The notes: a model not told the origin generated them from the sequence alone. Shown: positions 11,419 to 63,100, counted from the first letter of the stretch. The stretch is DNA of 64,000 nt from Eledone cirrhosa (GCA_964016885.1 OZ024763.1:24490001-24554000); one strand, 5' to 3'. Numbers and translations are program-made.

Positions 11419-12091
11419 TGCAAAAGTTCTATTTAAATTGTTGGTATACAACAAGCAAATATTTTATAACTGATATAAAGCACTCGACAAGTATTTGGAG
11501 TAAATATACGATATTAACAAATGGAAACTATATTTATAAAACCATATCTATTTTATTATACATATTTCAAGGATGCCATGTTAAATGATGGTATGCTTTC
11601 ATCAGACAAAATACAATATATACCAGTTTTATAATTAAATTTTGACATAACCTTTCAAAATGCAACCGTTACATTTGGAAGACATCAGGGATATTGGATT
11701 TGTTTATCTTAGTAAGTCATTGTGTTACGGAGAAGGAAAAAAGTCGGAGAGAGAAAAACCGAGAGAGAGAAAAGTGGAGAAAGAAAGAAAGGGAGATATT
11801 TCCCTTTCTTTCTTTCTCCACTTTTCTCTCTCTCGGTTTTTCTCTCTCCGACTTTTTTCCTTCTCCGTAACACAATGACTTACTAAGATAAACAAATCCA
11901 ATATCCCTGATGTCTTCCAAATGTAACGGTTGCATTTTGAAAGGTTATGTCAAAATTTATTTATAAAACTGTTATATATTGTATTTTGTCTGATGAAAGC
12001 ATACCATCATTTAACATGGCATCCTTGAAATATGTATAATAAAATAGATATAGTTTTATAAATATAGTTTCCATTTGTTAATATCGTATAT
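11419..12091 (-). mobile_element. Fold-back element family B: 588-bp near-perfect palindrome plus 85-bp tail
   Basis: Arms 11504-11797 and 11798-12091 are reverse complements with no loop; the mirrored ORFs 11660+ and 11717- in the track confirm this. Tail at 11419-11503. (TA)n flanks. Confidence 0.9.
11982..12046 (+). ncRNA. Type I hammerhead ribozyme motif (mirror copy 11549-11613, minus)
   Basis: TATTTTGT CTGATGA aagcataccat-catttaac-atggcatcctt GAAA TATGTA TA^ATAAAATA. Stem I is 8 bp and the core is intact. Confidence 0.8.
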
Positions 12092-12762: not shown

Positions 12763-12883
12763 AAGAAATATGGTGTGGTAAGAAACCAGGTGGACCATAA
12801 CGCACCAGAGTACTCAATACTTAGGGTAGTAGAGTGGGTAATAGGATAAGAACCAGGACCCCGACGGCAGAGCTCCGGCCGTT
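12763..12883 (-). mobile_element. Family A (PLE 3' end) fragment
   Basis: aaccaggtggaccataacgcaccagagtactcaatac...gaccccgacggc matches 34095-34200. Confidence 0.85.
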
Positions 12884-12902
12884 TATATACATATATATAT
12901 AC

Positions 12903-13256: not shown

Positions 13257-13440
13257 TATTTTTTCCTCCTGTTGTGTTGTATGTCTACGCCATTTTTTAT
13301 TCAGTCTGTCTATATATTTATTTATTTATTTGCTTGTTTGTTTATTTTATTTTGTCTTCTTTGCGCATGCGTTTGCGTGTGTGTATAGTGTTATGTTTGC
13401 TGTGTGACTAGTGTGTATAGTGTTGTGTCTGCTGGGTGAC

Positions 13441-13770
13441 ACAAGATGTACAGAGGGTACTTGCAGAAACATGACAACAACATACATAGGTGAGACAGCT
13501 CGTAGCATAGGTGAAAGGGTAGACCAACACTGGGGGGAACTAAAAGGACGAAAAAACGGGTCAGTACTATACGAACATGCTAGACAACAACATGACGGTA
13601 ACATAGACAACATAGAAATTAGAATAATATCTAAACATAGGAATGACCCAGCAGATAGGCAAATCAGAGAGGCCAGTGAAATAGAAATTAGAAGACCAAA
13701 GCTAAACAGAAAGAATGAGTGGAACAACAACAACACCCAAACAAACAACACTGACCTAAGAGAAGTATAA
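13441..13770 (+). pseudogene. PLE GIY-YIG endonuclease C-terminal fragment
   Basis: CTEGTC...TYIGETARSIGERVDQH...LYEHARQQH...RQIREASEI...LNRKNEW carries the YIG, R, H, E and N motifs. Confidence 0.85.
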
Positions 13771-14050
13771 ATAAGTAAATAAAATAAAATAAAATAAGAT
13801 AAATAAATACATACACAAGCACAATAACAACAAGCACATAAACACACACTAGTCACCCAGCAGACACAACACTATACACACTAGTCACACAGCAAACATA
13901 ATACTATACACACACGCAAACGCATGCGCAAAGAAGACAAAATAAAATAAACAAACAAGCAAATAAATAAATAAATATATAGACAGACTGAATAAAAAAT
14001 GGCGTAGACATACAACACAACAGGAGGAAAAAATGACCCTCCCCAAGTAT

Positions 14051-14261
<211 letters not shown>

Positions 14262-14267
14262 TATATT

Positions 14268-14485
14268 GAAGGCGTGTGGCTGAGTGGTTAGAGAATTGGA
14301 TTCGCAATCGTAAGGATGTGAGTTCGATTCCTGGACCAGGCGATGCGTTATGTCCTTGAGCAAGACACTTTATTTCACGTTGCTCCTTCTACCTGGAGTT
14401 GCGACCGATAGATAGTATTAGCAATTGGAAAGACCAACGGAAACATTGTTCCCTCGGTCCGATTTGACGAAAGTCGATCGTTCCT
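14268..14485 (+). mobile_element. tRNA-derived SINE family C
   Basis: A box TGGCTGAGTGG, B box GTTCGATTCC, central tgtccttgagcaagacacttta. Ends in gatcgttcc(ta)n. Confidence 0.85.
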
Positions 14486-14577
14486 ATATATATATGTATA
14501 TATATATATGTATATATATATATGTATATATGTATATATATATATATATATATACACATAAATATATATATATATAT

Positions 14578-14669: not shown

Positions 14670-15520
14670 GTAAGTCCGAATAATCATTTGATAAAATATA
14701 TACAGTATTTCCTCTCCCAATCAGTATAATTTAACCAGACAAAAAATCATTTAAACGCGGCTATAAGTTTAAAATGTACTCATGAAGAAATAATAGATAA
14801 ATGATACAGATACTTTTCCGCGATGTACAGCTACATGACATCTACCTCGCATTTCTCCTAGCCGGTAGAATTTGACTAGAGAAATAGTTAATTAAGCAGA
14901 ATTAGGTACAAAATTGAAGTTAGAAGAAAAAATGCACATAAATTTTACCAAAATTCTCAGTCTTTACCAACCGGCGTTTTCGTTCCACTTTTTGGATATA
15001 TCTGGTCTTGGATAAATCCACGAGGCTCGAAACTACGCAGGAGATACCTCAGACTGAACTAAGATTCTTCTATCATGAACCCCGGCAGAAGTGAATTCAA
15101 AATGGCTAAGAACCATTACGTAGCCAGTGGTCAAGACAGAAAGTTTGTGATTGGTGCCTGTCGGCGAGTAGGCTGGAGGCTAGCCGAATAATGCCTAAAG
15201 TTTTACTCAACCGTACGGGTGTATATATTAAATTCAAAGGGTATATATATATATATATATATAAATTAGACAAAGTCACAAATACATATATGCGTTTGGC
15301 AACCATTCACGGTGTGGCTCAATGAAGGATTAATTAAATAATTATTTATCAGAGCAATTTATAAAAATGTAAGTCCAAAGAATCATTAGATAAAATATAT
15401 ATTGCTCTGATAAATAATTATTTAATTAATTCTTCATTGAGCCACACCGTGAATGGTTGCCAAACGCATATATATATATTCGTGACTTTGTCTAATTTAT
15501 ATATACCCTTTGAATTTATA
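14665..15520. mobile_element. TA-flanked element combining a partial tandem repeat and a fold-back
   Basis: Inverted arms at ~15228-15360 and ~15400-15518. The direct repeat aaatgtaagtcc...atcatt.gataaaatatata occurs at ~14667 and ~15366. Confidence 0.6.
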
Positions 15521-15837
15521 TATGTATATAGATATATATATATATGTATAGACGATCTGAGTTCAAACCCCGTCTAGGTTAACCTTTCCTGCGATCCTTA
15601 CGAAGTCGATAAAATAAAGTACCAGTAATGTACTGGCTATATATATAATAGAAAAAATGAGAAAGTTTCGTTTACATATGAAAAACATTGATTGGATATC
15701 GACTTGTTACGCGCGTTTCGCAGAGGATTGGCTCAAGGTGAACCACTCTATGCACAGGCAGAGTGTATATAATAGAAAAAACGAGGTTTCGTTTACACAC
15801 ACACACACACACAAACACACACATATATATATATATA

Positions 15838-16045
15838 ACGAAGGAAATGTGGTAAGGAACCAGATGGACCATAACGCACCAAATTACTCAATACTTAGGG
15901 TAGTAGAGTGGGTAATAGGAACGAGTAGGACCCAGACGGCTGAGCTCAAGCCGTTTCGACGGCTAATTCTGGACCCGACGGCTATTTCTATCCAGAATTA
16001 GCCGTCGAAACGGCTTGAGCTCAGCCGTCTGGGTCCTACTCGTTC
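15838..16045 (-). mobile_element. Family A fold-back copy
   Basis: Tail plus inverted arms carrying the HHR 3' half (GAAAcggcttgagctcagccgTC). TA flanks. Confidence 0.9.
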
Positions 16046-16052
16046 ATATATA

Positions 16053-16104: not shown

Positions 16105-16420
16105 GATAACGGGGAATCAGTGTTGCATCAAAACACAATATATTAACATATTACATATGTTTCTCCGTCGATCAGCTCAGGGCAAGATCTGTTATAGATC
16201 GAACCCGACTCTGCAATCGCCAGTTCCTCGGCTCGATCTGTAACAGATCCTGCCCTGAGCTCATCGACGGAGAAACATATGTAATATGTTAATACATTGT
16301 CTTTTGATGCATCACTGATTCCTCGTTATACATAATATTATACTCTGCTCTGCGCGAGCATCGAGTGCACAAACGGCATACCGCATACGGACGCATTTAA
16401 TTGCAACCATACAAGAACCA
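16103..16420 (+). mobile_element. Fold-back element family F plus tail
   Basis: Arms at ~16105-16198 and ~16234-16329, tail at ~16330-16420. Related sequence at ~17390-17620, 53480-53728 and 62100-62347. Confidence 0.8.
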
Positions 16421-17073: not shown

Positions 17074-17107
<34 letters not shown>

Positions 17108-17111
<4 letters not shown>

Positions 17112-17301
17112 AACGAGTGGGACCCCGACGGCTGAGCTCAAGCCGTTTCGACGGCTAATTCTGGACTACAGAATTAGCCGTCGAAACGGCTAGAGCTCTG
17201 CCGTCGGGGTCCTATTCGTTCCTATTACCCACTCTACTACCCTAAGTATTTAGTACTTTGGTGCGTTATGATCCACCTGGTTCCTTACCACATTTCCTTC
17301 G

Positions 17302-17302
<1 letters not shown>
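17108..17302 (+). mobile_element. Family A fold-back copy
   Basis: The short arm starts taggaacg and the long arm ends catttccttcgt(TA)n. Confidence 0.9.
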
Positions 17303-17392
<90 letters not shown>

Positions 17393-19443: not shown

Positions 19444-19448
<5 letters not shown>

Positions 19449-20290
19449 TTATTGATGTATTGTTTTATTGATATTTTTTATCTGTTTGTCCCGAATCTTC
19501 TATTATCGATTTTTTATCGTATGGTTGACTGTAGACTTGTTCTATATGTGACGGTATTTTAACGATAGTTATAGCTCTGATTCATCTGAATTATTGAGCC
19601 CTCTGCCGCTCATTTCGAATTTTGTTTATCGTGAACTCGTGCGCCGATTTTTCGATACTCGATCTTTCTAATATTTTTAGCTCTGGACATAGCTATCCAC
19701 CAGTTAATTTTATTGCTCATTTTTTGTCGATTCTATTGAGTGATGAATAGCTTTTGTTTTATTTTAACATGTCTATTGAGCACTCTTATTCGATATGTGT
19801 ATTTCCACATTCCCTCGAATAGTTTTCGCGGATATAGAGGTTATCTCCCTTGTCTAATGCCATGTGCGTTTTTCACTGGTAGTTAGCCCCTTTTCCGCTA
19901 GGAAAAAAGCTCGTTGAGAAAGTAAACTCCGTTCCTCTTGCTCTAGTAGGCTTTTATATTTATATGTGAGCTGATAGAGTACAGTCTAAGGATTTACAGA
20001 AACCCATGAAGCTAGATTTAACACCTTTCTAGTGGGTCCGGGTATGATTTTACATTCATTTAAATTATTGATGTATTGTTTTATTGATATTTTTTATCTG
20101 TTTGTCCCGAATCTTCTATTATCGATTTTTTATCGTATGGTTGATTGTAGACTTGTTCTATATGTGACGGTATTTTAACGATAGTTATAGCTCTGATTCA
20201 TCTGAATTATTGAGCCCTCTGCCGCTCATTTCGAATTTTGTTTATCGTGAACTCGTGCGCCGATTTTTCGATACTCGATCTTTCTAATAT
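19444..20290. mobile_element. TA-embedded element with ~230-bp direct terminal repeats (unit ~616 bp)
   Basis: 19444-19672 is nearly identical to 20060-20290. No TG..CA ends and no ORF. Confidence 0.75.
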
Positions 20291-20306: not shown

Positions 20307-20376
20307 AACCTATGGCAGAGCTCGAGCCGTTTCGAAACGACTCAAGCTCTGCCGTCGGAGGTCTTGACGATTTACC
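20307..20376 (+). mobile_element. Family A minimal hairpin copy
   Basis: ggcagagctcgagccgtttc|gaaacgactcaagctctgcc folds back at the ribozyme GAAA. Confidence 0.7.
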
Positions 20377-26221: not shown

Positions 26222-26391
26222 AACAAACAACAAAGAAGGTGTGTTGAGAAACCAGGTGGACCATAACGCACCAGAGTACTCAATACGTAGGGTAGTAGAG
26301 TGGGTAATAGGAAAAGCGTCAGGACACCGACGGCCGAGATCCGGCCGTTTTCCACAGCTAGATCCGAACGTGTTCGGATTCTATATATACT

Positions 26392-26463
<72 letters not shown>

Positions 26464-26518
26464 AATATATATACACACATACCAGAGCTCAGTCGTCGGG
26501 GTCTTGACGCTTTTCCTA
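26222..26518 (-). mobile_element. Family A subfamily fold-back copy interrupted by microsatellite
   Basis: Long arm at 26222-26380. Inverted arm at 26482-26518 ends in ttttccta. Confidence 0.75.
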
Positions 26519-27086: not shown

Positions 27087-27185
27087 AGGAATTCTACAGA
27101 CCTTGAACTATTTTATTCGTATGAAATCATCAGGAGTGTTGATGATTTCAAACAAATGGAACACTCCAAGTGCTGTAGAAATCAA
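27087..27185. mobile_element. Family G degenerate hairpin with HHR remnant
   Basis: ttctacag...tcatcaggag / tgatgatttc...ctgtagaa. Related to 31293, 38843 and 42855. Confidence 0.55.
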
Positions 27186-27243: not shown

Positions 27244-27368
27244 AGTCAGGAGCCCGACGGTTGAGCTCGGGCCGTTTCGACAGCTAGATCCGAACTCTAC
27301 TACCCCAAGTATTGAGTACACTGGTCCGTTATGGTCCACCTGGTATCTTACCACAACCTCTTTGTTAT
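27244..27368. mobile_element. Family A fragment with internal inversion
   Basis: ccgacgg...ccgtttcgacagct, followed by a forward tail ctctactacccc...ggtccacctgg. Confidence 0.7.
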
Positions 27369-33595: not shown

Positions 33596-34057
33596 TATAT
33601 ATATAATGAGAAGACTGTGTTTGTTGTGTCTGTGGTAACAGACTTAAGGAAATGAAAGACAGAGGATATAAAAGGAGATGGAGAGAAAGAGAGAGGGAGA
33701 GAGGGGGGGTGAAAGAGTGATAGAGAAAGTGAAAAAGTGAGAGAGGGGAAGATAGAAAGAGAGAGAGAGAAAAAAAGAGAAAGAGTGAACAAGAGAGAAA
33801 GAGTGAGAAAGAGAAAGAGAAAAAGAGAGTGAGAGAGAATGATGATGACGATGATGATGATGATGATGAGTACAAACAAACCATTGTTCGTGATGACTGT
33901 TCGAACAGGTAATACCAAAGACAAGAACATCACTAAAGCTAATTTCTAGGTGATACAACAGCGTGACTAATGGTTCGATAACCAACCAAGTATAGGTATG
34001 TATATGTATATACTTATATATATTTGTATATATGTATGTATGTATATGTGAATATAA

Positions 34058-34095
<38 letters not shown>

Positions 34096-35376
34096 CGAAG
34101 GAAATGTGGTAAGGAACCAGGTGGACCATAACGCACCAAAGTACTCAATACTTGGGGTAGTAGAGTGGGTAATAGGAACCAGTAAGACCCCGACGGCTGA
34201 GCTCAAGCCGTTTCGACGGCTAATTCAGGACTAAATGAAAATTTATCCTGGTATTTAAATAGCCGATCTTCTCAAGGGGTAATTCCATATATGGTCAAAG
34301 TGATTGTCAAAAATCAGTAGTAATTCTGTGATTGCAAATTAGTAGGGGAGATGGTGGCTAAACCTGCCAGTAGGAGAAAGAGGGGAGGGGGCGGAGTAGA
34401 CCCAATCAAGCGTTGGTAGTGCCAGCTACAGCTGGGTATGAGGTCAAAGAAGATACTGGGGAGGGGGAGGGGGAGGAAGTCGGAACGGTAGGTAGAACAA
34501 TGGGGGGTAAAAATATATATGAAAGAAAAAATACTGAGAGTGAAGAAAAGCGGATAAGTGTAAAGAAAAAAGTAAAGCAAGTTCTACGACCTAGGTCTCT
34601 AGCTATTGTTGGGCTAGAATAAATAAATAAAGAAAGAAAGAAAGAAGTAAAGAAAGAAATAAAGAAATAACGAAATAAGTAAATGAACTAGGTGGGACGG
34701 AATAGGCAAGGACCCTTTTAACAGGTATAAGTACGTAAATGATACGGTGACGGGTCAACAAATGGGGCCAAAATACTAAAGAGACTACCACGAAATAAAT
34801 AATAAAGGTTTCTATCCCGGGCACAATGCCAGCAACCACCCAGTGCAGCAAAGTGAACTAGTACGAGATAATAATTCTGAGTCCCGAAAAAAATATATAC
34901 TAATGCTAACTCTAAAAGATCTAAAACAAGCTACATGAAAGTTCGTACGAAGTAAAGGTAGAATACGGAAAAATAAATTCAGAATCCACCCCGCCCAAAA
35001 GAAAAAGCGAAGAAAGAAATACTGAAACGAGAAAATAAGGCATAAGTGCCACTAAGAAATATAGAAGGCACGGAGAATAGTGGGAGCGGTCGGAAAAAGG
35101 GGGCAAGTATCCGGGGTCTAAACCAACTGCTATAAAAGGCGGAGTCCGCCAAATCTATCATAGACTAGGGAAGGGGGTGGGGGTACTAAGGCTACAAGGG
35201 GCCAAAGGGCAGCCTCGGGTGGGCGAGAAAAGACGCCGACAAAGGAGAAGAGCTGGGGTAGAAGGACTAAGGAGGGAAGAGGGGAAGGAAATAAAGGAAG
35301 CGATAAAAGAATAAAAAGATCTTACGTCTCCCTTGGCAAGCAGGGGTTACCCATTGCAAAATCGGCAAGTGGGGTG

Positions 35377-36262
35377 TTATAGCCCTAGTCTACCCCCCGG
35401 GTCATTATGGGGTTTGAGGGCGAGGTAAGTCCTACGCAATCTATGTTTACATGCAGTAACCAGTTCATCTTTCTTGTTTAGGAGTTGGTCCGTCGAAAAC
35501 AGCATTTGTAAAGTTTCCTCCGAGCATAAATTGCACGGACGGCGTCCTCCCGTGTAAGAGTTGGCTCTGGACAGTAATCTCCAAGTAAGATCATAGGTGA
35601 TGTTGTTGTCCTTGAGGTCCCATATGTGGCCCGAAAGTGTAGTGGCGTGACGCCGGGCCGGGTTTCGGAAGGTATGTCTATGTTGGTATAGCCGGGTCTT
35701 GAAGTCACATGCGGTAAGTCCTATATAGGCTTTGTTGGAGGTATCCGTCCTCACGTTGCACTGGTACATCACATTACGGTCTCTGCATCTATTGTCGAGT
35801 GGGCAAATGGATCTATCCGGACAGTTACACCTCCTGGTCGGTTCTCCACTGCTATTTAGGTTATTTCTGCCATCGGGGTTGAGTTTTTGTTGTTAGAGGA
35901 GACGATGTTTTGTGCGAAGTTTGGTGTAGTGCTGTAAGAGAGTTTGATGGTATTTTTGTTAATTATGTTGTGGTAGCGGTGTTGTAATGGGAAGTGTTTT
36001 TCAATGAGCCTAAAGAATAGTTTCCCAATGGGAGTTGTCACCTCTGCGTTGTGGAGAGGATTGAACCATGTTACATTGCGTGAGCGGCGGAGTCTCCTGC
36101 TGGTTCCGCTAATGGGAGCTGGACAGTAGGATATATCCTCCCGGAAACCACTCCGCTTGAGGGCCTGGTTGTAATAAGGCGCATGTTCATCGAATATCCG
36201 CTCATTAGCTGACAAACGGGATATGCGGAGGGAGATGTTTTTGACCAGGTTGTTTGTGATGG
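35377..36262 (-). pseudogene. PLE ORF C-terminus: thumb/linker, Cys motif and GIY-YIG endonuclease (Nematis/Neptune-like), disrupted
   Basis: YNQALKRSGF...VTWFNP...TIKLSYS, then CNCPDRSICPLDNRC...VMYQC...AYIGLTACDFKTRLYQH...LSGHIWDLK...CNLCSEE...LLNKKDELVTACKH. Frame break near 35856. Confidence 0.9.
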
Positions 36263-36403
36263 CACTACCAACGCTTGATTGGGTCTACTCCACCCCCTCC
36301 CCTCTTTCTCCTACTGGCAGGTTTAGCCACCATCTCCCCTACTAATTTGCAATCACAGAATTACTACTGATTTTTGACAATCACTTTGACCATATATGGA
36401 ATT

Positions 36404-36497
36404 ACCCCTTGAGAAGATCGGCTATTTAAATACCAGGATAAATTTTCATTTAGTCCAGAATTAGCCGTCGAAACGGCTTGAGCACAGCCGTCGGGGT
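36404..36497 (+). ncRNA. Hammerhead ribozyme, U3-A8 core with long stem II (element-sense copy 34187-34280, minus)
   Basis: ACCCC TTGAGAA ga-t-CGGCTAtt...aatTAGCCG-tc GAAA CGGCT tgagcac AGCCG TC^GGGGT. All three stems pair. Confidence 0.8.
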
Positions 36498-36536
36498 CTT
36501 ACTGGTTCCTATATATATATATATATATATATATAT

Positions 36537-36921
36537 CTAAAGGAACGATCGACTTTCGTCAAATCGGACCGAGGGAACAATGTTTCTGTTGGTCTTTCCA
36601 ATTGCTAATACAATCTATCTGTCGCAACTCCAGGTAGAAGGAGCAACGTGAAATAAAGTGTCTTGCTCAAGGACATAACGCATCACCTGGTCTAGGAATC
36701 GAACTCACAACCTTACGATTGCGAATCCAATTCTCTAACCACTCAGCCACACGCCTTCACTTTGAAGTGGACCAGGAGATGCGTTATGTTCTTGAGCAAG
36801 ACACTTTATTTCACGTTGCTCCTTCTACTTGGAGTTGCGACCGATAGATAGTATTAGCAATTGGAAAGACCAACGGAAACACTGTTCCCTCGGTCCGATT
36901 TGGCGAAAGTCGATCGTTCCT
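36537..36921. mobile_element. SINE family C in fold-back arrangement
   Basis: Full copy on minus (36537-36758) lies head-to-head with a 5'-truncated plus copy (36768-36921). TA flanks. Confidence 0.85.
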
Positions 36922-36934
36922 CATATATATATAT

Positions 36935-37256
36935 GTAGAGGTTATATTTAATTTGTTGGGATACAACAAGCAAACTATTTTTATAACAGATATAAAGCAC
37001 TCAACAAATTATTGTAGTAAATATACAATATATTAACAAATGGAAACTATATTTATAAAACCATATTTATTTCATTATACATCTTTCAAGGGCCACCAGA
37101 GCTTTTTTAAGGGTATGTCAATATTTATTTATAAAACTAACCTATATTATATTTTATCTGATGAAAGCGCACCATATTTTGCTCTGGTGGCCCTTGAAAT
37201 ATGTATAATGAAATAAATATGGTTTTATAAATATAGTTTCCATTTGTTAATATATT
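36935..37256 (-). mobile_element. Family B fold-back copy (HHR at 37150-37215, plus)
   Basis: Tail plus inverted arms. tattttat CTGATGA aagcgcacca...tggtggccctt GAAA tatgta TA atgaaata. Confidence 0.85.
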
Positions 37257-38288: not shown

Positions 38289-38373
38289 ACGAAGGAGTTG
38301 TGGTAAGGAACCAGATGGACCATAATGCACCAGAGTACTCAATACTCAGGGTAGTAGAGTGGATAATAGGAAA
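38289..38373 (-). mobile_element. Family A tail-only copy
   Basis: acgaaggagttgtggtaaggaaccag...taataggaa between TA tracts. Confidence 0.85.
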
Positions 38374-38665: not shown

Positions 38666-38832
38666 GTATATGTATATACATATATATATATATATATATA
38701 CACATACACAAATTCAGAAACCAGTTTGTGTTCTACCTGTCTGGATATATATATATATGTATATGTGTGTGTGTGTGTGTGTGTATGTGTGTGCGTGTGT
38801 GCGCGTGCATGTGTATGTGTGTGTGTGTTATA

Positions 38833-38948
38833 TTATAGAAATAACTTCTATAGGACTAGAACTGTTTCATTCCTTAGAAGACATGATGGTTTCTGATTTT
38901 TTACGAATAAAAACAGTTCGAGTTCTGTAGGAGTCATTTCTATAATAA
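38833..38948. mobile_element. Family G hairpin
   Basis: tattatagaaataacttctataggactagaactgttt / aaacagttcgagttctgtaggagtcatttctataata. Confidence 0.7.
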
Positions 38949-38952
38949 AATG

Positions 38953-41482: not shown

Positions 41483-41675
41483 ACGAAGGAAATGTGGTAA
41501 GGAACCAGGTGGACCATAACGCACCAAAGTACTCAATATTTGAGGTAGTAGAGTGGGTAATAGGAACCCGTAAGACCCCGACAGCTGAGCTCAAGCCGTT
41601 TCGACGGCTAATTCTGGACAAGAATTAGCCGTCGAAACGGCTTGAGCTCAGCTGTCGGGGTCTTACTGGTTCCTA
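41483..41675 (-). mobile_element. Family A fold-back copy
   Basis: Tail plus perfect inverted arms around a ~5-nt loop. The short arm ends in ggttccta. Confidence 0.9.
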
Positions 41676-41720
41676 TATGTATATATATATATATATATAT
41701 GTATAAATATATATATATAT

Positions 41721-42105
41721 ATACGATATTAACAAATGGAAACTATATTTATAAAACCATAATTATTTCATTATACATATTTCAAGGACACCCAGTCAAA
41801 TTATGGTGCGCTTTCATCAGATAAAATATAATATAGATCAGTTTTATAAATAAATATTAACATTTTTTAGGGGTGTGTCAATATTTATTTATAAAACTGA
41901 TCTATATTATATTTTATCTGATGAAAGCACACCATAATTTAACTTGGTGTCCTTGAGATATGTATAATGAAATAAATATGGTTTTATAAATATAGTTTCC
42001 ATTTGTTAATATCGTATTTTTACTCCAAATATTTGTCGAGTGCTTTATATCAGTTATAAAAATATTTGCTTGTTGTATCCCAACAATTTAAATAGAACTT
42101 TTACA
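41721..42105 (+). mobile_element. Family B fold-back copy (tail on the right)
   Basis: Arms at ~41721-41863 and ~41876-42017. HHR is intact in the left arm (minus) and has GAGA in the right arm. Confidence 0.88.
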
Positions 42106-42118
42106 TATATATATATAT

Positions 42119-42327
42119 CTTTAACGATCGACTTCCGTCAAATCGGACCGAGGAAACAATGTTTCCATTGGTCTTTCCAATTGCTAATACTATCTATCGG
42201 TCGCAACTCCAGGTAGAAGGAGCAACGTGAAATGAAGTGTCTTGCTCAAGGACATAACGCATCGCCCGGTTCTGGAATCAAACTCACAACCTCACGATTG
42301 CGAATCTAACCACTCAGCCACAGGCCT
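42119..42327 (-). mobile_element. SINE family C
   Basis: Reverse complement of 14268-14485. TA flanks. Confidence 0.85.
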
Positions 42328-42349
42328 TTATTTATATATATATATATAT

Positions 42350-42388
42350 ATAATAAAATATAATTGATCACAAGAATATCTATTTTGT

Positions 42389-42425
<37 letters not shown>

Positions 42426-42567
42426 CAAAATAGATATTCTTGTGATCAATTATATTTTATTATACATATTCCAGAGGTACTGAGTTAAGTTCAACAGTAT
42501 GTCCTCATCAGATAAAATAAAATGATACATCACATACCCTGACATAGTACATCGTTAAGCTTCAATA
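42350..42567. mobile_element. Family B-related pieces in inverted orientation, with degenerate HHR
   Basis: 42351-42390 is the inverse of 42423-42462. Minus strand reads tattttat CTGATGA ggac...ctct GGAA tatgta TA ataaaata. Confidence 0.55.
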
Positions 42568-44504: not shown

Positions 44505-44688
44505 AGATAGTGATGAGGTTTGCTTGAAGCATTGTGGAATAATAAAAATGGTCCTTTTGGAAGCCCCAACAATGCAGATGGGTAAATCTTCGGTTAACAG
44601 AATCAGGTGGTAATGAGAGAGAGAGATCTAAGATAGATTCTATTACCCGGAGATTTACCGATCTGCATTATTGAGGCTTCCAAAACGA

Positions 44689-44696
<8 letters not shown>
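44505..44696. mobile_element. Fold-back element with tail (unassigned family)
   Basis: Arms at ~44545-44606 and ~44636-44696 (ttttggaagccccaacaatgcagat / atctgcattattgaggcttccaaaa). TA flanks. Confidence 0.7.
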
Positions 44697-45005: not shown

Positions 45006-45052
<47 letters not shown>

Positions 45053-45240
45053 TAAGTGGAAGCTTAGTAAAATCGAAGCTTTGGCTGTGGGCAAGCAAAG
45101 TCGACCTACAATAGGAATGAGTTAGCAAAGCACTCAATAAGGGTAGGTCCTTAGAGTAATAACATACGTTTAAATAGCTTGACAAATAGAACAATGCTGT
45201 AGGCAAGCAACCACGTGAACAACACAATATATAACTACTC

Positions 45241-45303
45241 CATTACCAAAGGTTTCAGGACCCTAGACAATATTAACATACGTCCAGTTCGTTCATCAGA
45301 CAT
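45241..45303 (-). ncRNA. Hammerhead-like motif
   Basis: tgt CTGATGA acgaaCTGGAC...GTCTAGggtcct GAAA CC ttt GG TA^atg. Stem I is weak. Confidence 0.5.
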
Positions 45304-45309
45304 TTATGT

Positions 45310-45341
<32 letters not shown>

Positions 45342-46259: not shown

Positions 46260-46318
46260 ATATATATATATACATATATATATATAAATATATACATATA
46301 TATATATATATATATACA

Positions 46319-46774
46319 TGTAAAGTTATATTTAAAATTGTTGGGTTACAACTAGTAAATATTTATAACTGATATAAAAGCACTCGACAAATACTTGGAG
46401 TATATTTACAATATTAAATAAATGGAAAACTATATTTATAAAACCATATTTATTTCATTATATATATTTCGGGGATATCATATTAACAATATGCTATGCC
46501 TTCATCAGACAAAATACAATATAAACAGTTTTATAGATAAATATATTCGACATACCGTAATAAACATCAACTTCATTTGAAGAGGTTCACTGCTAGAGTG
46601 AACCTCTTCAAATGAAGTTGATGTTTATTACGGTATGTCGAATATATTTATCTATAAAACTGTTTATATTGTATTTTGTCTGATGAAGGCATAGCATATT
46701 GTTAATATGATATCCCCGAAATATATATAATGAAATAAATATGGTTTTATAAATATAGTTTTCCATTTATTAAT

Positions 46775-46780
<6 letters not shown>
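46319..46780 (-). mobile_element. Family B fold-back copy
   Basis: Near-perfect arms at 46407-46591 and 46597-46780, tail at 46319-46406. HHR reads tattttgt CTGATGA aggcat...atcccc GAAA tatata TA atgaaata. Confidence 0.9.
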
Positions 46781-55149: not shown

Positions 55150-55349
55150 NNNNNNNNNNNNNNNNNNNNNNNNNNNNNNNNNNNNNNNNNNNNNNNNNNN
55201 NNNNNNNNNNNNNNNNNNNNNNNNNNNNNNNNNNNNNNNNNNNNNNNNNNNNNNNNNNNNNNNNNNNNNNNNNNNNNNNNNNNNNNNNNNNNNNNNNNNN
55301 NNNNNNNNNNNNNNNNNNNNNNNNNNNNNNNNNNNNNNNNNNNNNNNNN
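55150..55349. other. Assembly gap (200 N)
   Basis: Run of N. Confidence 0.99.

Positions 55350-63100
<7,751 letters not shown>

Follow-up and report, generated by a model that had tools for sequence, protein, structure and literature searches.

A 64,000-nt stretch of the Eledone cirrhosa genome (GCA_964016885.1 OZ024763.1:24490001-24554000, hereafter the window) contains, on the minus strand at positions 34095-36511, the remnant of a Penelope-like element (PLE) of the Hydra clade, together with shorter relatives of the same repeat family, here called family A. We propose that a duplicated RNA ruler, so far undescribed, occurs throughout the Hydra clade of PLEs: each of its hairpin boxes would dock one reverse transcriptase (RT)-endonuclease of the element so that priming starts 6-11 nt upstream, and programmed twin priming would build the tail and the inverted pseudo-long terminal repeat (pLTR) in one step, the small hairpins of the window being run-offs. 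We put the probability of this reading at roughly one half. The observations behind it are the anatomy of the insertion, its clade motifs, the conservation and covariation of the box, the positions of insertion ends relative to the boxes and the one-sided tails.

The insertion lies between (TA)n runs on both sides (Table 1). Its two inverted arms are 99% alike, with 3 mismatches over 253 nt, and a 77-nt tail is present on the left side only, the junction TAs standing 80 nt apart. A first-pass annotation, generated by a model from the same DNA, had recognized the inverted pLTR arms and a tail confined to the element's 3′ side, at 252 and 78 bp; both are present, at the lengths given here, and it had overlooked a predicted hammerhead in the pLTR and a conserved box inside the tail. 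An inverted, 5′-truncated arm with a one-sided tail is standard PLE anatomy as presented in Fig. 2 of PMC8557442 and in the relevant part of PMC3846280.

A conserved and covarying hairpin box

The box of family A follows the motif RCUC, stem, loop, stem, 2-nt bulge, GAGYRC, which is common to the tails of other TA-flanked fold-back families of the window that are otherwise unlike family A in sequence. A strict descriptor of this motif matched the window 11 times, compared with 0.16 in block shuffles; among metagenome relatives (78 loci, including 38 open reading frames (ORFs) of at least 650 aa), it matched 23 of the 78 loci in sense and 3 in antisense, compared with 0.46 in shuffles. Circularity was avoided by picking box instances by two sequence words alone, which yielded 93 sense and 15 antisense boxes against 15.8 in shuffled sequence, distributed over 44 of the 78 loci. 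Across the 80 distinct inner sequences, only the register with the 2-nt bulge paired above column shuffles (0.91, 0.65 and 0.55; 0, 0 and 9 of 2000 shuffles).

A covariance model built solely from 22 metagenome boxes matched the family A tail at 34132-34172 (E 0.0011). Up to E 2 it gave 20 matches in the window, including the tails of other families and four in no assigned family; the decayed box of the copy at 17107 was missed. Of the 56 metagenome loci unused in its construction, 33 were searched and 24 matched; double changes in box pairs numbered 40, compared with 10.5 in shuffles (0/500). Rfam searches on five relatives returned 0 matches. Two near-identical box-like stretches, at 55420 and 47382 on the minus strand, have no clear upper stem; positions 55150-55349 are a 200-base assembly gap (N).

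The outer pair of the box is A-U in family A and G-C in most relatives, and the unpaired bases and the bulge are invariant. The varying pairs are mostly Watson-Crick, which does not tell RNA from DNA, and several boxes have G-U pairs on the sense strand. Folding favours the box in four other families of the window and in 36 of the 48 metagenome cases.

Two boxes beside the insertion ends

In intact metagenome relatives the order of features is hammerhead, box 1, box 2, ATG. The distance from the GAAAC of the hammerhead to box 1 has a median of 57 nt, box 1 and box 2 are spaced by 55-79 nt, and box 2 precedes the start codon of an ORF of more than 700 codons by 34-69 nt in 16 of the 21 rows with two boxes. 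Two apparent spacings of 43 nt were discarded as nested false starts, for which the covariance model gives 59. In two of the relatives (L002:2210-2300 and L006:282-370) the second box has a changed 5′ word and an intact 3′ word; box 2 therefore tolerates more drift than box 1.

An insertion end is informative when a second copy in the same locus runs on beyond it, as was the case for 7 of 25 (TA)n-terminated ends. Each of the seven falls at a TA that precedes a box by 6-11 nt, namely box 1 in four cases and box 2 in three, and the product of their local chance shares is 1.2e-6. Among 23 box pairs, a TA starting at this distance precedes box 1 in 19 and box 2 in 22, the nearby background being 0.39. 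The tail-less end of family A is likewise a TA 8 nt before the box. Under a stricter filter 19 ends were retained, comprising 13 without a box, 6 with one and none with two, and each of 12 hand-picked fold-backs of the window (four families) has a box at exactly one end. Because the end-marking box lies outside the inserted DNA, it must exert its effect through the template or an intermediate of greater length.

Twin priming and its alternatives

In the mechanism that we favour slightly, each box positions one RT, two RTs prime from opposite nicks, and the length of the tail equals the spacing of the boxes. In the element RNA, two bulged hairpin boxes would lie between the hammerhead and the next ORF downstream, each preceded at 6-11 nt by a UA. 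The RT-endonuclease would nick both strands of a (TA)n tract, and the freed 3′ ends would pair with the UA before each box. An RT held by the downstream box 2 would prime at the UA before that box and copy the tail, pLTR and ORF to give the tailed arm; a second RT, held by box 1, would start at the UA preceding that box, primed from the opposite nick, and give the tail-less arm. The two complementary DNAs (cDNAs) would then be joined head to head with an overlap of 0-2 nt or a short filler. On this view the tail would measure how far apart the boxes lie, and the inverted arm would arise by a second priming and not through an accident of repair. Binding of the protein, the presence of two RTs on one RNA and the order of events are what we infer. 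The mechanism fits the likeness of the arms, the junctions that differ between insertions and the varied inversion points of longer copies. For a Poseidon element of the anole, the cited part of PMC11167929 reports two internal RT starts separated by an interval equal to the tail, cutting and extension of both target strands, and a predicted dimer; there, both strands use both start sites alike.

Several points weigh against this reading. The covariation alignment (A7) was fitted to the structure and the counts from it ignore kinship. In family A itself the box has a pair probability of 0.07 and is disfavoured against a competing hairpin, which is the minimum-energy fold in three of three copies; 12 of the 48 metagenome boxes also score under 0.5. 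Eighteen of the 25 ends were uninformative, and the 6-11 range, together with the relaxed pattern that admitted the seventh end, was chosen after seeing the data. The set of 12 fold-backs excluded symmetric hairpins of unassigned family, and the stump at 20314, also of family A, lacks a box at both of its sides. At 80 nt, the family A tail borders on the spacing range of 55-79 nt, and the family has 43 nt from GAAAC to box, just short of the minimum of 46. Box 2 of family A was not seen in the window, which has no full-length copy; a search of viral contigs for it gave 46 matches to a 15-mer, none reaching 25 nt. By analogy with the anole element, moreover, equal use of the two sites alone would not give strictly one-sided tails. 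Symmetric-looking TA-flanked hairpins with no family assigned occur at 15205-15520, 42353-42460, 44547-44693, 38828-38950 and 27089-27183; should some of these prove to be tail-less products of PLEs, the one-sided rule would lose force.

The ends might instead be set at the DNA level, a cDNA of more than unit length or a self-primed fold-back being trimmed by the endonuclease at a TA beside each box, which the enzyme would recognize as a single-stranded or cruciform hairpin, so that one RT would be enough. In PMC8557442 the tail is explained by an intermediate that the endonuclease resolves, PMC3846280 makes a case for palindromes at inverted junctions that prime their own synthesis, and the Penelope tail is needed for endonuclease recognition, as cited in PMC11167929. 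The mostly Watson-Crick variation of the box suits either nucleic acid, and the stump at 20314 resembles a snap-back. However, internal RT starts at both ends have been measured in vitro for the anole PLE (PMC11167929, in the part cited), the family A junctions have a filler or a gap and no perfect palindrome, the two arms of the long copy differ by 1.9 kb in length, and the G-U pairs on the sense strand also speak against trimming. We consider this origin unlikely.

Alternatively, the boxes could be kept for another task, such as promoter function, ORF translation, RNA export or control of the hammerhead, and a stable hairpin would merely expose an unpaired UA usable by any RT. The location of both boxes in the 5′ untranslated region (UTR) of full-length elements, with the ORF 34-69 nt downstream, is compatible with such a role, as are the promoter and expression controls described for the pLTR and 34-bp repeat of Penelope in the relevant part of PMC2377424. 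A passive barrier, however, leaves unexplained why the bulge and the unpaired bases do not vary, why both boxes keep to a narrow offset of 6-11 nt and why the tails are one-sided, and we judge it a little less probable still than trimming of DNA.

A dead Hydra-clade copy

The insertion at 34095-36511 is almost certainly a dead, 5′-truncated and 5′-inverted copy of a Hydra-clade PLE, and the small hairpins shorter products of the same family. It lacks the RT core and keeps only the thumb, the linker and the endonuclease, the last being C-terminal, with the thumb before it and a stop after it. The two minus-strand frames are one ORF that is broken in the window copy, because most reads lack the 1-nt indel: near 35883 the window differs from 7400 of 8125 reads of X18, one of four public sequencing runs (X1, X4, X6 and X18) compared over window positions 34093-36265. 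In these runs the family A ORF continues upstream, past the inversion junction, in other copies. A predicted structure of the frame 2 fragment matched the GIY-YIG domain of I-TevI (Z 8.8, root-mean-square deviation 2.4, 90 residues), as expected from the coding GIY-YIG PLE remnant announced in the first-pass annotation. The Foldseek match of this model was weak (E 0.31), a Pfam search with both ORF fragments gave no family and a PDB sequence search no match. The frame 2 fragment has 5404 relatives at E up to 0.001. Among the relatives' ORFs with the same thumb and endonuclease, YRDD is present in 38 of 38 and the two motifs of the N-terminal half that characterize the Hydra clade, DKT and RWK, in 35 and 27, respectively, and the predicted fold of one full-length relative resembles that of telomerase reverse transcriptase.

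A C-terminal endonuclease, a CxCx5C linker, the absence of CCHH, the CxxC and CxH motifs and a (TA)n target are features of the Hydra clade in the description cited from PMC8557442. The CCHH zinc finger of the Neptune, Nematis and Penelope/Poseidon endonucleases is absent from the window copy, which has no CxxC between the GIY-equivalent (35772) and the YIG (35727); nor does a C-terminal endonuclease without CCHH match the layout of Naiad, in which the domain is N-terminal and carries CCHH. The clades earlier put forward for comparison (Nematis, Neptune, Poseidon, Naiad) did not include Hydra, the one that the motifs indicate. A shared-word search for longer relatives found none among 289 candidates, and in an alignment-based search that gave 3550 relatives none was named as family A among the 120 matches listed. 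Matches by tblastx at 13938 and 32079 were repeat noise and disappeared on a repeat search.

The ORF and the inverted arms belong to one family. Contigs of one public run cover 30 of 30 bins of the compared region, and other copies pass from UTR into ORF without interruption, which speaks strongly against the idea, named earlier as a possible refutation, that ORF and inverted repeats came from independent insertions. Copies that agree with the window as far as 36261 and carry on with the ORF beyond it were recovered in 9, 2 and 1 contigs of X1, X4 and X6, respectively. Because these copies leave the window sequence at 36261, the overlap at the inversion junction amounts to 2 nt (36260-36261), and the 6-nt microhomology TGGCAC (36260-36265) suggested previously is not sustained. 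Other family A copies have other inversion points, for instance 34261 to 35841. In the same comparison two of the three arm mismatches are private to the left arm; the arms were thus alike at the time of insertion, which fits the twin-cDNA model.

The 3′ UTR of the long copy is approximately 1.28 kb. Within it, 46 nt at 34801-34847 have 81% identity with the 3′ portion of a common family resembling short interspersed nuclear elements (SINEs), of which 12 other pieces lie in the window; this segment is either an old captured piece or a shared tail. In the tail, 34106-34120 is an imperfect internal repeat of 34165-34182, the sequence around the tail-less end site. Piles of X18 read ends at 35450, 35708 and 36182 (CATG) and at 34225 and 35964 (AATT) correspond to restriction sites; a further pile at 34236 (511/770) was set aside and may also be one.

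Short relatives of family A

Family A is represented in the window by one 2.4-kb copy and eight stumps of approximately 0.06-0.3 kb with 81-96% identity. The count of at least eight shorter relatives made earlier is therefore correct. The graded truncation series from 2.4 kb down to tail-only that went with it is not seen: the inner ends of the stumps lie at reference positions 34166-34233, with nothing between them and the 2.4-kb copy. Hand-picked PLE-type insertions make up approximately 12% of the window.

Reference position 34172 is where the tail-less arm starts in the long copy and in each of the fold-backs at ~16045, 17108 and 41675, although 26 TA sites were available. In the diverged subfamilies at 26518 and 20376, the ends lie at the equivalent of 34172 by alignment, and the arm at 27250 stops short, at reference 34186. 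The earlier statement that the hairpins stop where the long arm does thus applies exactly to the first three, and to 26518 only as the equivalent place by alignment. Loose ends at 34172 lead into (TA)n in all four public runs (3304 reads of X18; 65, 2 and 1 contigs of X1, X4 and X6). The inner junctions differ in all three small fold-backs, in arm ends and in fillers of 16, 2 and 2 nt, and the arms of one insertion share private variants. Identical ends with different inner junctions support the conclusion that the small hairpins were made by the same process as the long copy. The frameshifted long copy without an RT is their sibling, not their source; the earlier proposal that a coding PLE explains family A accordingly stands for family and process, not for this copy as progenitor.

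Could the small hairpins be a self-amplifying, non-autonomous family akin to miniature inverted-repeat transposable elements (MITEs), independent of the coding element, with ORF and repeats from separate insertions? They do have terminal inverted repeats and TA flanks, their inner ends cluster at 34226-34233, and summed depth is far higher across the terminal 145 nt than across the body. Against this stand the three junctions, all different in arm ends and filler and with no fixed shared internal sequence, the asymmetric tails in place of symmetric termini, the private variants common to both arms of one insertion, and the continuity of UTR and ORF in other copies with other inversion points. 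We regard independence as highly improbable.

The stump stops at 34226-34236 could mark run-off of the RT at the 5′ terminus of transcripts initiated within the pLTR, as opposed to a stall at hammerhead loop II. Box 2 exists only at the junction of pLTR and 5′ UTR, six arm ends fall within 8 nt, and in the cited part of PMC2377424 the Penelope start site lies in the pLTR. The summed contig depth of X1, which is not a copy number, is 3.4 million over 34093-34238 and at most 0.2 million beyond, a 16-fold drop past 34238. TATA-like and initiator-like words at 34261, 34238 and 34234 are weak pointers in the same direction, but such short words are frequent by chance, and variants in loop II weaken the TATA-like one. 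The fold-backs of family B, described below, turn at varied points, and the large X18 pile at 34225 is a restriction site. Run-off at a transcript start is therefore a possibility that we hold tentatively, with the balance somewhat against it.

A predicted hammerhead in the pLTR

The pLTR contains a predicted type I hammerhead (Table 1), whose folding z-score is modest (-2.2, with 6 of 200 shuffles); Rfam on 34000-37000 returned microsatellite noise only. The U3-A8 core recurs in 4 of 53 metagenome relatives; a loose-pattern count of 16 such cores contains chance matches and was not used. A hammerhead near the 3′ end is a feature of the Hydra clade, and all Hydra rows in File S2 of PMC8557442 are C3-G8; U3-A8 cores are known from PLEs of Schistosoma, in Cercyon pLTRs, according to the cited part of PMC4209133. 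Because all arms read across the predicted cleavage position, the template was uncut at the hammerhead site. Use of uncleaved RNA as template has been shown in vitro for the anole element in the section of PMC11167929 referred to here.

Table 1 Features of the 2.4-kb insertion and of the short family A relatives (window coordinates)
Feature	Position	Strand	Remarks
Whole insertion	34095..36511	-	5′-truncated, 5′-inverted Hydra-type PLE inside (TA)n microsatellite
Tail	34095..34171	-	Bounded by end sites 1 and 2, the latter a TA at 34094-34093
Box 1	34141..34166	-	ACUC-stem-loop-stem-UU-GAGUAC
End site 1 (tail-less end)	34172..34174	-	TA starting 8 nt before box
3′ arm of inverted repeat (part of pLTR)	34172..34424	-	
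Predicted type I hammerhead	34187..34280	-	Not found by Rfam
Hammerhead stem I	34280-34276 with 34191-34187	-	5 bp
Hammerhead core	34275-34269	-	UUGAGAA, U3-A8 variant
Hammerhead stem II; GAA	34214-34212 (GAA)	-	37-nt loop
Hammerhead stem III		-	6 bp, palindromic loop; predicted cleavage after 34192
Stop zone of both arms in three small fold-backs	34226..34233	.	Inside hammerhead loop II
3′ UTR, middle part	34425..35376	-	952 nt, long, pyrimidine-rich (41% T, 28% C); common to other family A copies
ORF remnant, frame 2	35377..35844	-	C-terminal GIY-YIG endonuclease; stop at 35379-35377
CxH	35451-35443	-	With CxxC, flanks E and N of endonuclease
CxxC	35535-35524	-	With CxH, flanks E and N of endonuclease
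YIG	35727-35719	-	Frame 2
CxCx5C linker motif	35829-35803	-	Frame 2
Frameshift	35860..35892	-	1-nt indel near 35883; most other copies are without it
ORF remnant, frame 1	35886..36261	-	Thumb of RT, and linker; best relative 45% identical
Inversion junction	36260..36261	.	2-nt overlap of ORF and inverted arm
Inverted tail-less arm	36260..36512	+	Second cDNA in the model; with hammerhead copy, core at 36409
Stump	12763..12884	-	Tail, no inverted arm
Fold-back stump	15836..16049	-	Tailed arm left, 16-nt filler
Fold-back stump	17107..17304	+	Tailed arm right, 2-nt filler
Diverged stump	20314..20376	+	Tail-less end, 20-nt fold-back, no box on either side
Diverged fold-back	26229..26518	-	Microsatellite between arms
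Diverged fold-back	27250..27368	+	Tail on one side, shortened arm on the other
Stump	38289..38372	-	Tail and ~7 nt
Fold-back stump	41483..41676	-	Tailed arm left, 2-nt filler

Comparison with known systems

Insertions of L1 elements can be 5′-inverted by twin priming, in which primers from opposite nicks copy one RNA and leave the 5′ part inverted; the second primer uses variable internal sites by chance complementarity. In the PLE model, by contrast, the second primer would sit at one fixed site beside a box, and both arms copy the same 3′ sequence.

Family A shares with the Hydra clade (Craig et al. 2021, PMC8557442) the C-terminal GIY-YIG endonuclease, the CxCx5C motif, the lack of CCHH, the CxxC and CxH motifs around E and N, the (TA)n target and, as predicted, a hammerhead near the 3′ end, as well as 5′-inverted copies, noted there for Penelope-13_HM. 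It differs from the elements described in that source in its 3′ UTR of approximately 1.28 kb, a U3-A8 in place of a C3-G8 core, the 37-nt loop II, the 6-bp stem III and a tail of approximately 80 nt as against 30-40. Hydra-1_Obim of Octopus bimaculoides (File S7 of PMC8557442) belongs to the same clade and has the same target, and its thumb and linker can be aligned by eye; with a different protein sequence, a short 3′ UTR and a C3-G8 hammerhead, it appears by eye to be another family. The element described here is thus, as judged by eye against Hydra-1_Obim, a new family of a known clade.

The Anolis Poseidon element PAc (Frangieh et al. 2024, PMC11167929) resembles the model in its two RT starts spaced by the tail, the extension of both strands, the uncleaved template and the predicted dimer. 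It differs in belonging to another clade, in starts reported within one AC-rich stem loop inside the ORF and in a tail of 30-40 nt; the main text describes no duplicated box and leaves the inverted arm unexplained. The PLE hammerheads treated in the cited part of Cervera and De la Pena (2014, PMC4209133) likewise have a U3-A8 core in pLTRs, a palindromic loop III and a G10.1-C11.1 pair, whereas in the predicted family A hammerhead stem III would be long enough for a monomer fold and loop II is long.

The words 'hairpin' and 'stem-loop' and the box sequence are absent from the main text of PMC8557442, although the consensus sequences drawn from that source contain the box by eye. The part of the retrozyme preprint 10.64898/2026.07.22.740005 considered here does not describe the box, and no description of the duplicated box or of its link to insertion ends was found in the literature searched, most subscription papers and Repbase reports lying outside it. 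The window copy itself is ordinary and dead; its anatomy, clade features and hammerhead are of a known PLE kind, and the two-box rule is new to the literature searched.

Other elements in the window

Family B comprises AT-rich, TA-flanked fold-backs with a CTGATGA core at 11421-12086, 36938-37256, 41724-42104 and 46317-46776; each has a one-sided tail of approximately 85-95 nt with the same box and arms of approximately 75-290 nt whose turning points vary, and no coding copy of the family was found in the window. Families C and D (147-506 and 16106-16418) each have a one-sided tail, and the upper stem of their box differs in sequence and still pairs. At 45045-45310, on the minus strand, lies a solo 3′ end of another family, with a hammerhead-like core, a box at 45157-45130 and a (TA)n end, and with no inverted arm.

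Positions 19444-20287 form a non-coding partial tandem with a 616-nt period between TA runs, with a box in both units (model matches at 19568 and 20184). In the second unit the sequence gives way to terminal (TA)n approximately 8 nt before the point at which the first unit enters a decayed second box (19680). We consider it a candidate non-autonomous PLE.

A 220-nt element with a head that appears tRNA-like by eye occurs at 36538-36921, 14267-14488 and 42123-42328, in (TA)n and with nearly the same 3′ end in all three cases. One copy, 30 bp from the 34095-36511 insertion, has a PLE-style 5′ inversion with 152-nt arms, and the element is a candidate SINE mobilized by a PLE. Finally, 13258-14034 is a 5′-inverted remnant with 183-nt arms beside (TA)n that encodes the C-terminal part of a different GIY-YIG endonuclease; by eye, it represents a second PLE clade in the window, not Hydra-like.

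Implications

The origin of the PLE tail and inverted pLTR has been debated for approximately two decades, the proposals being endonuclease resolution, self-priming, or two start sites of unexplained cause. A short, covarying and doubled box at a fixed distance from both ends makes this origin directly testable. The box also helps to recognize non-coding Hydra stumps that annotation pipelines would label as MITEs or unknown repeats, and it is a candidate for an RNA ligand in the group that is sister to telomerase RT.

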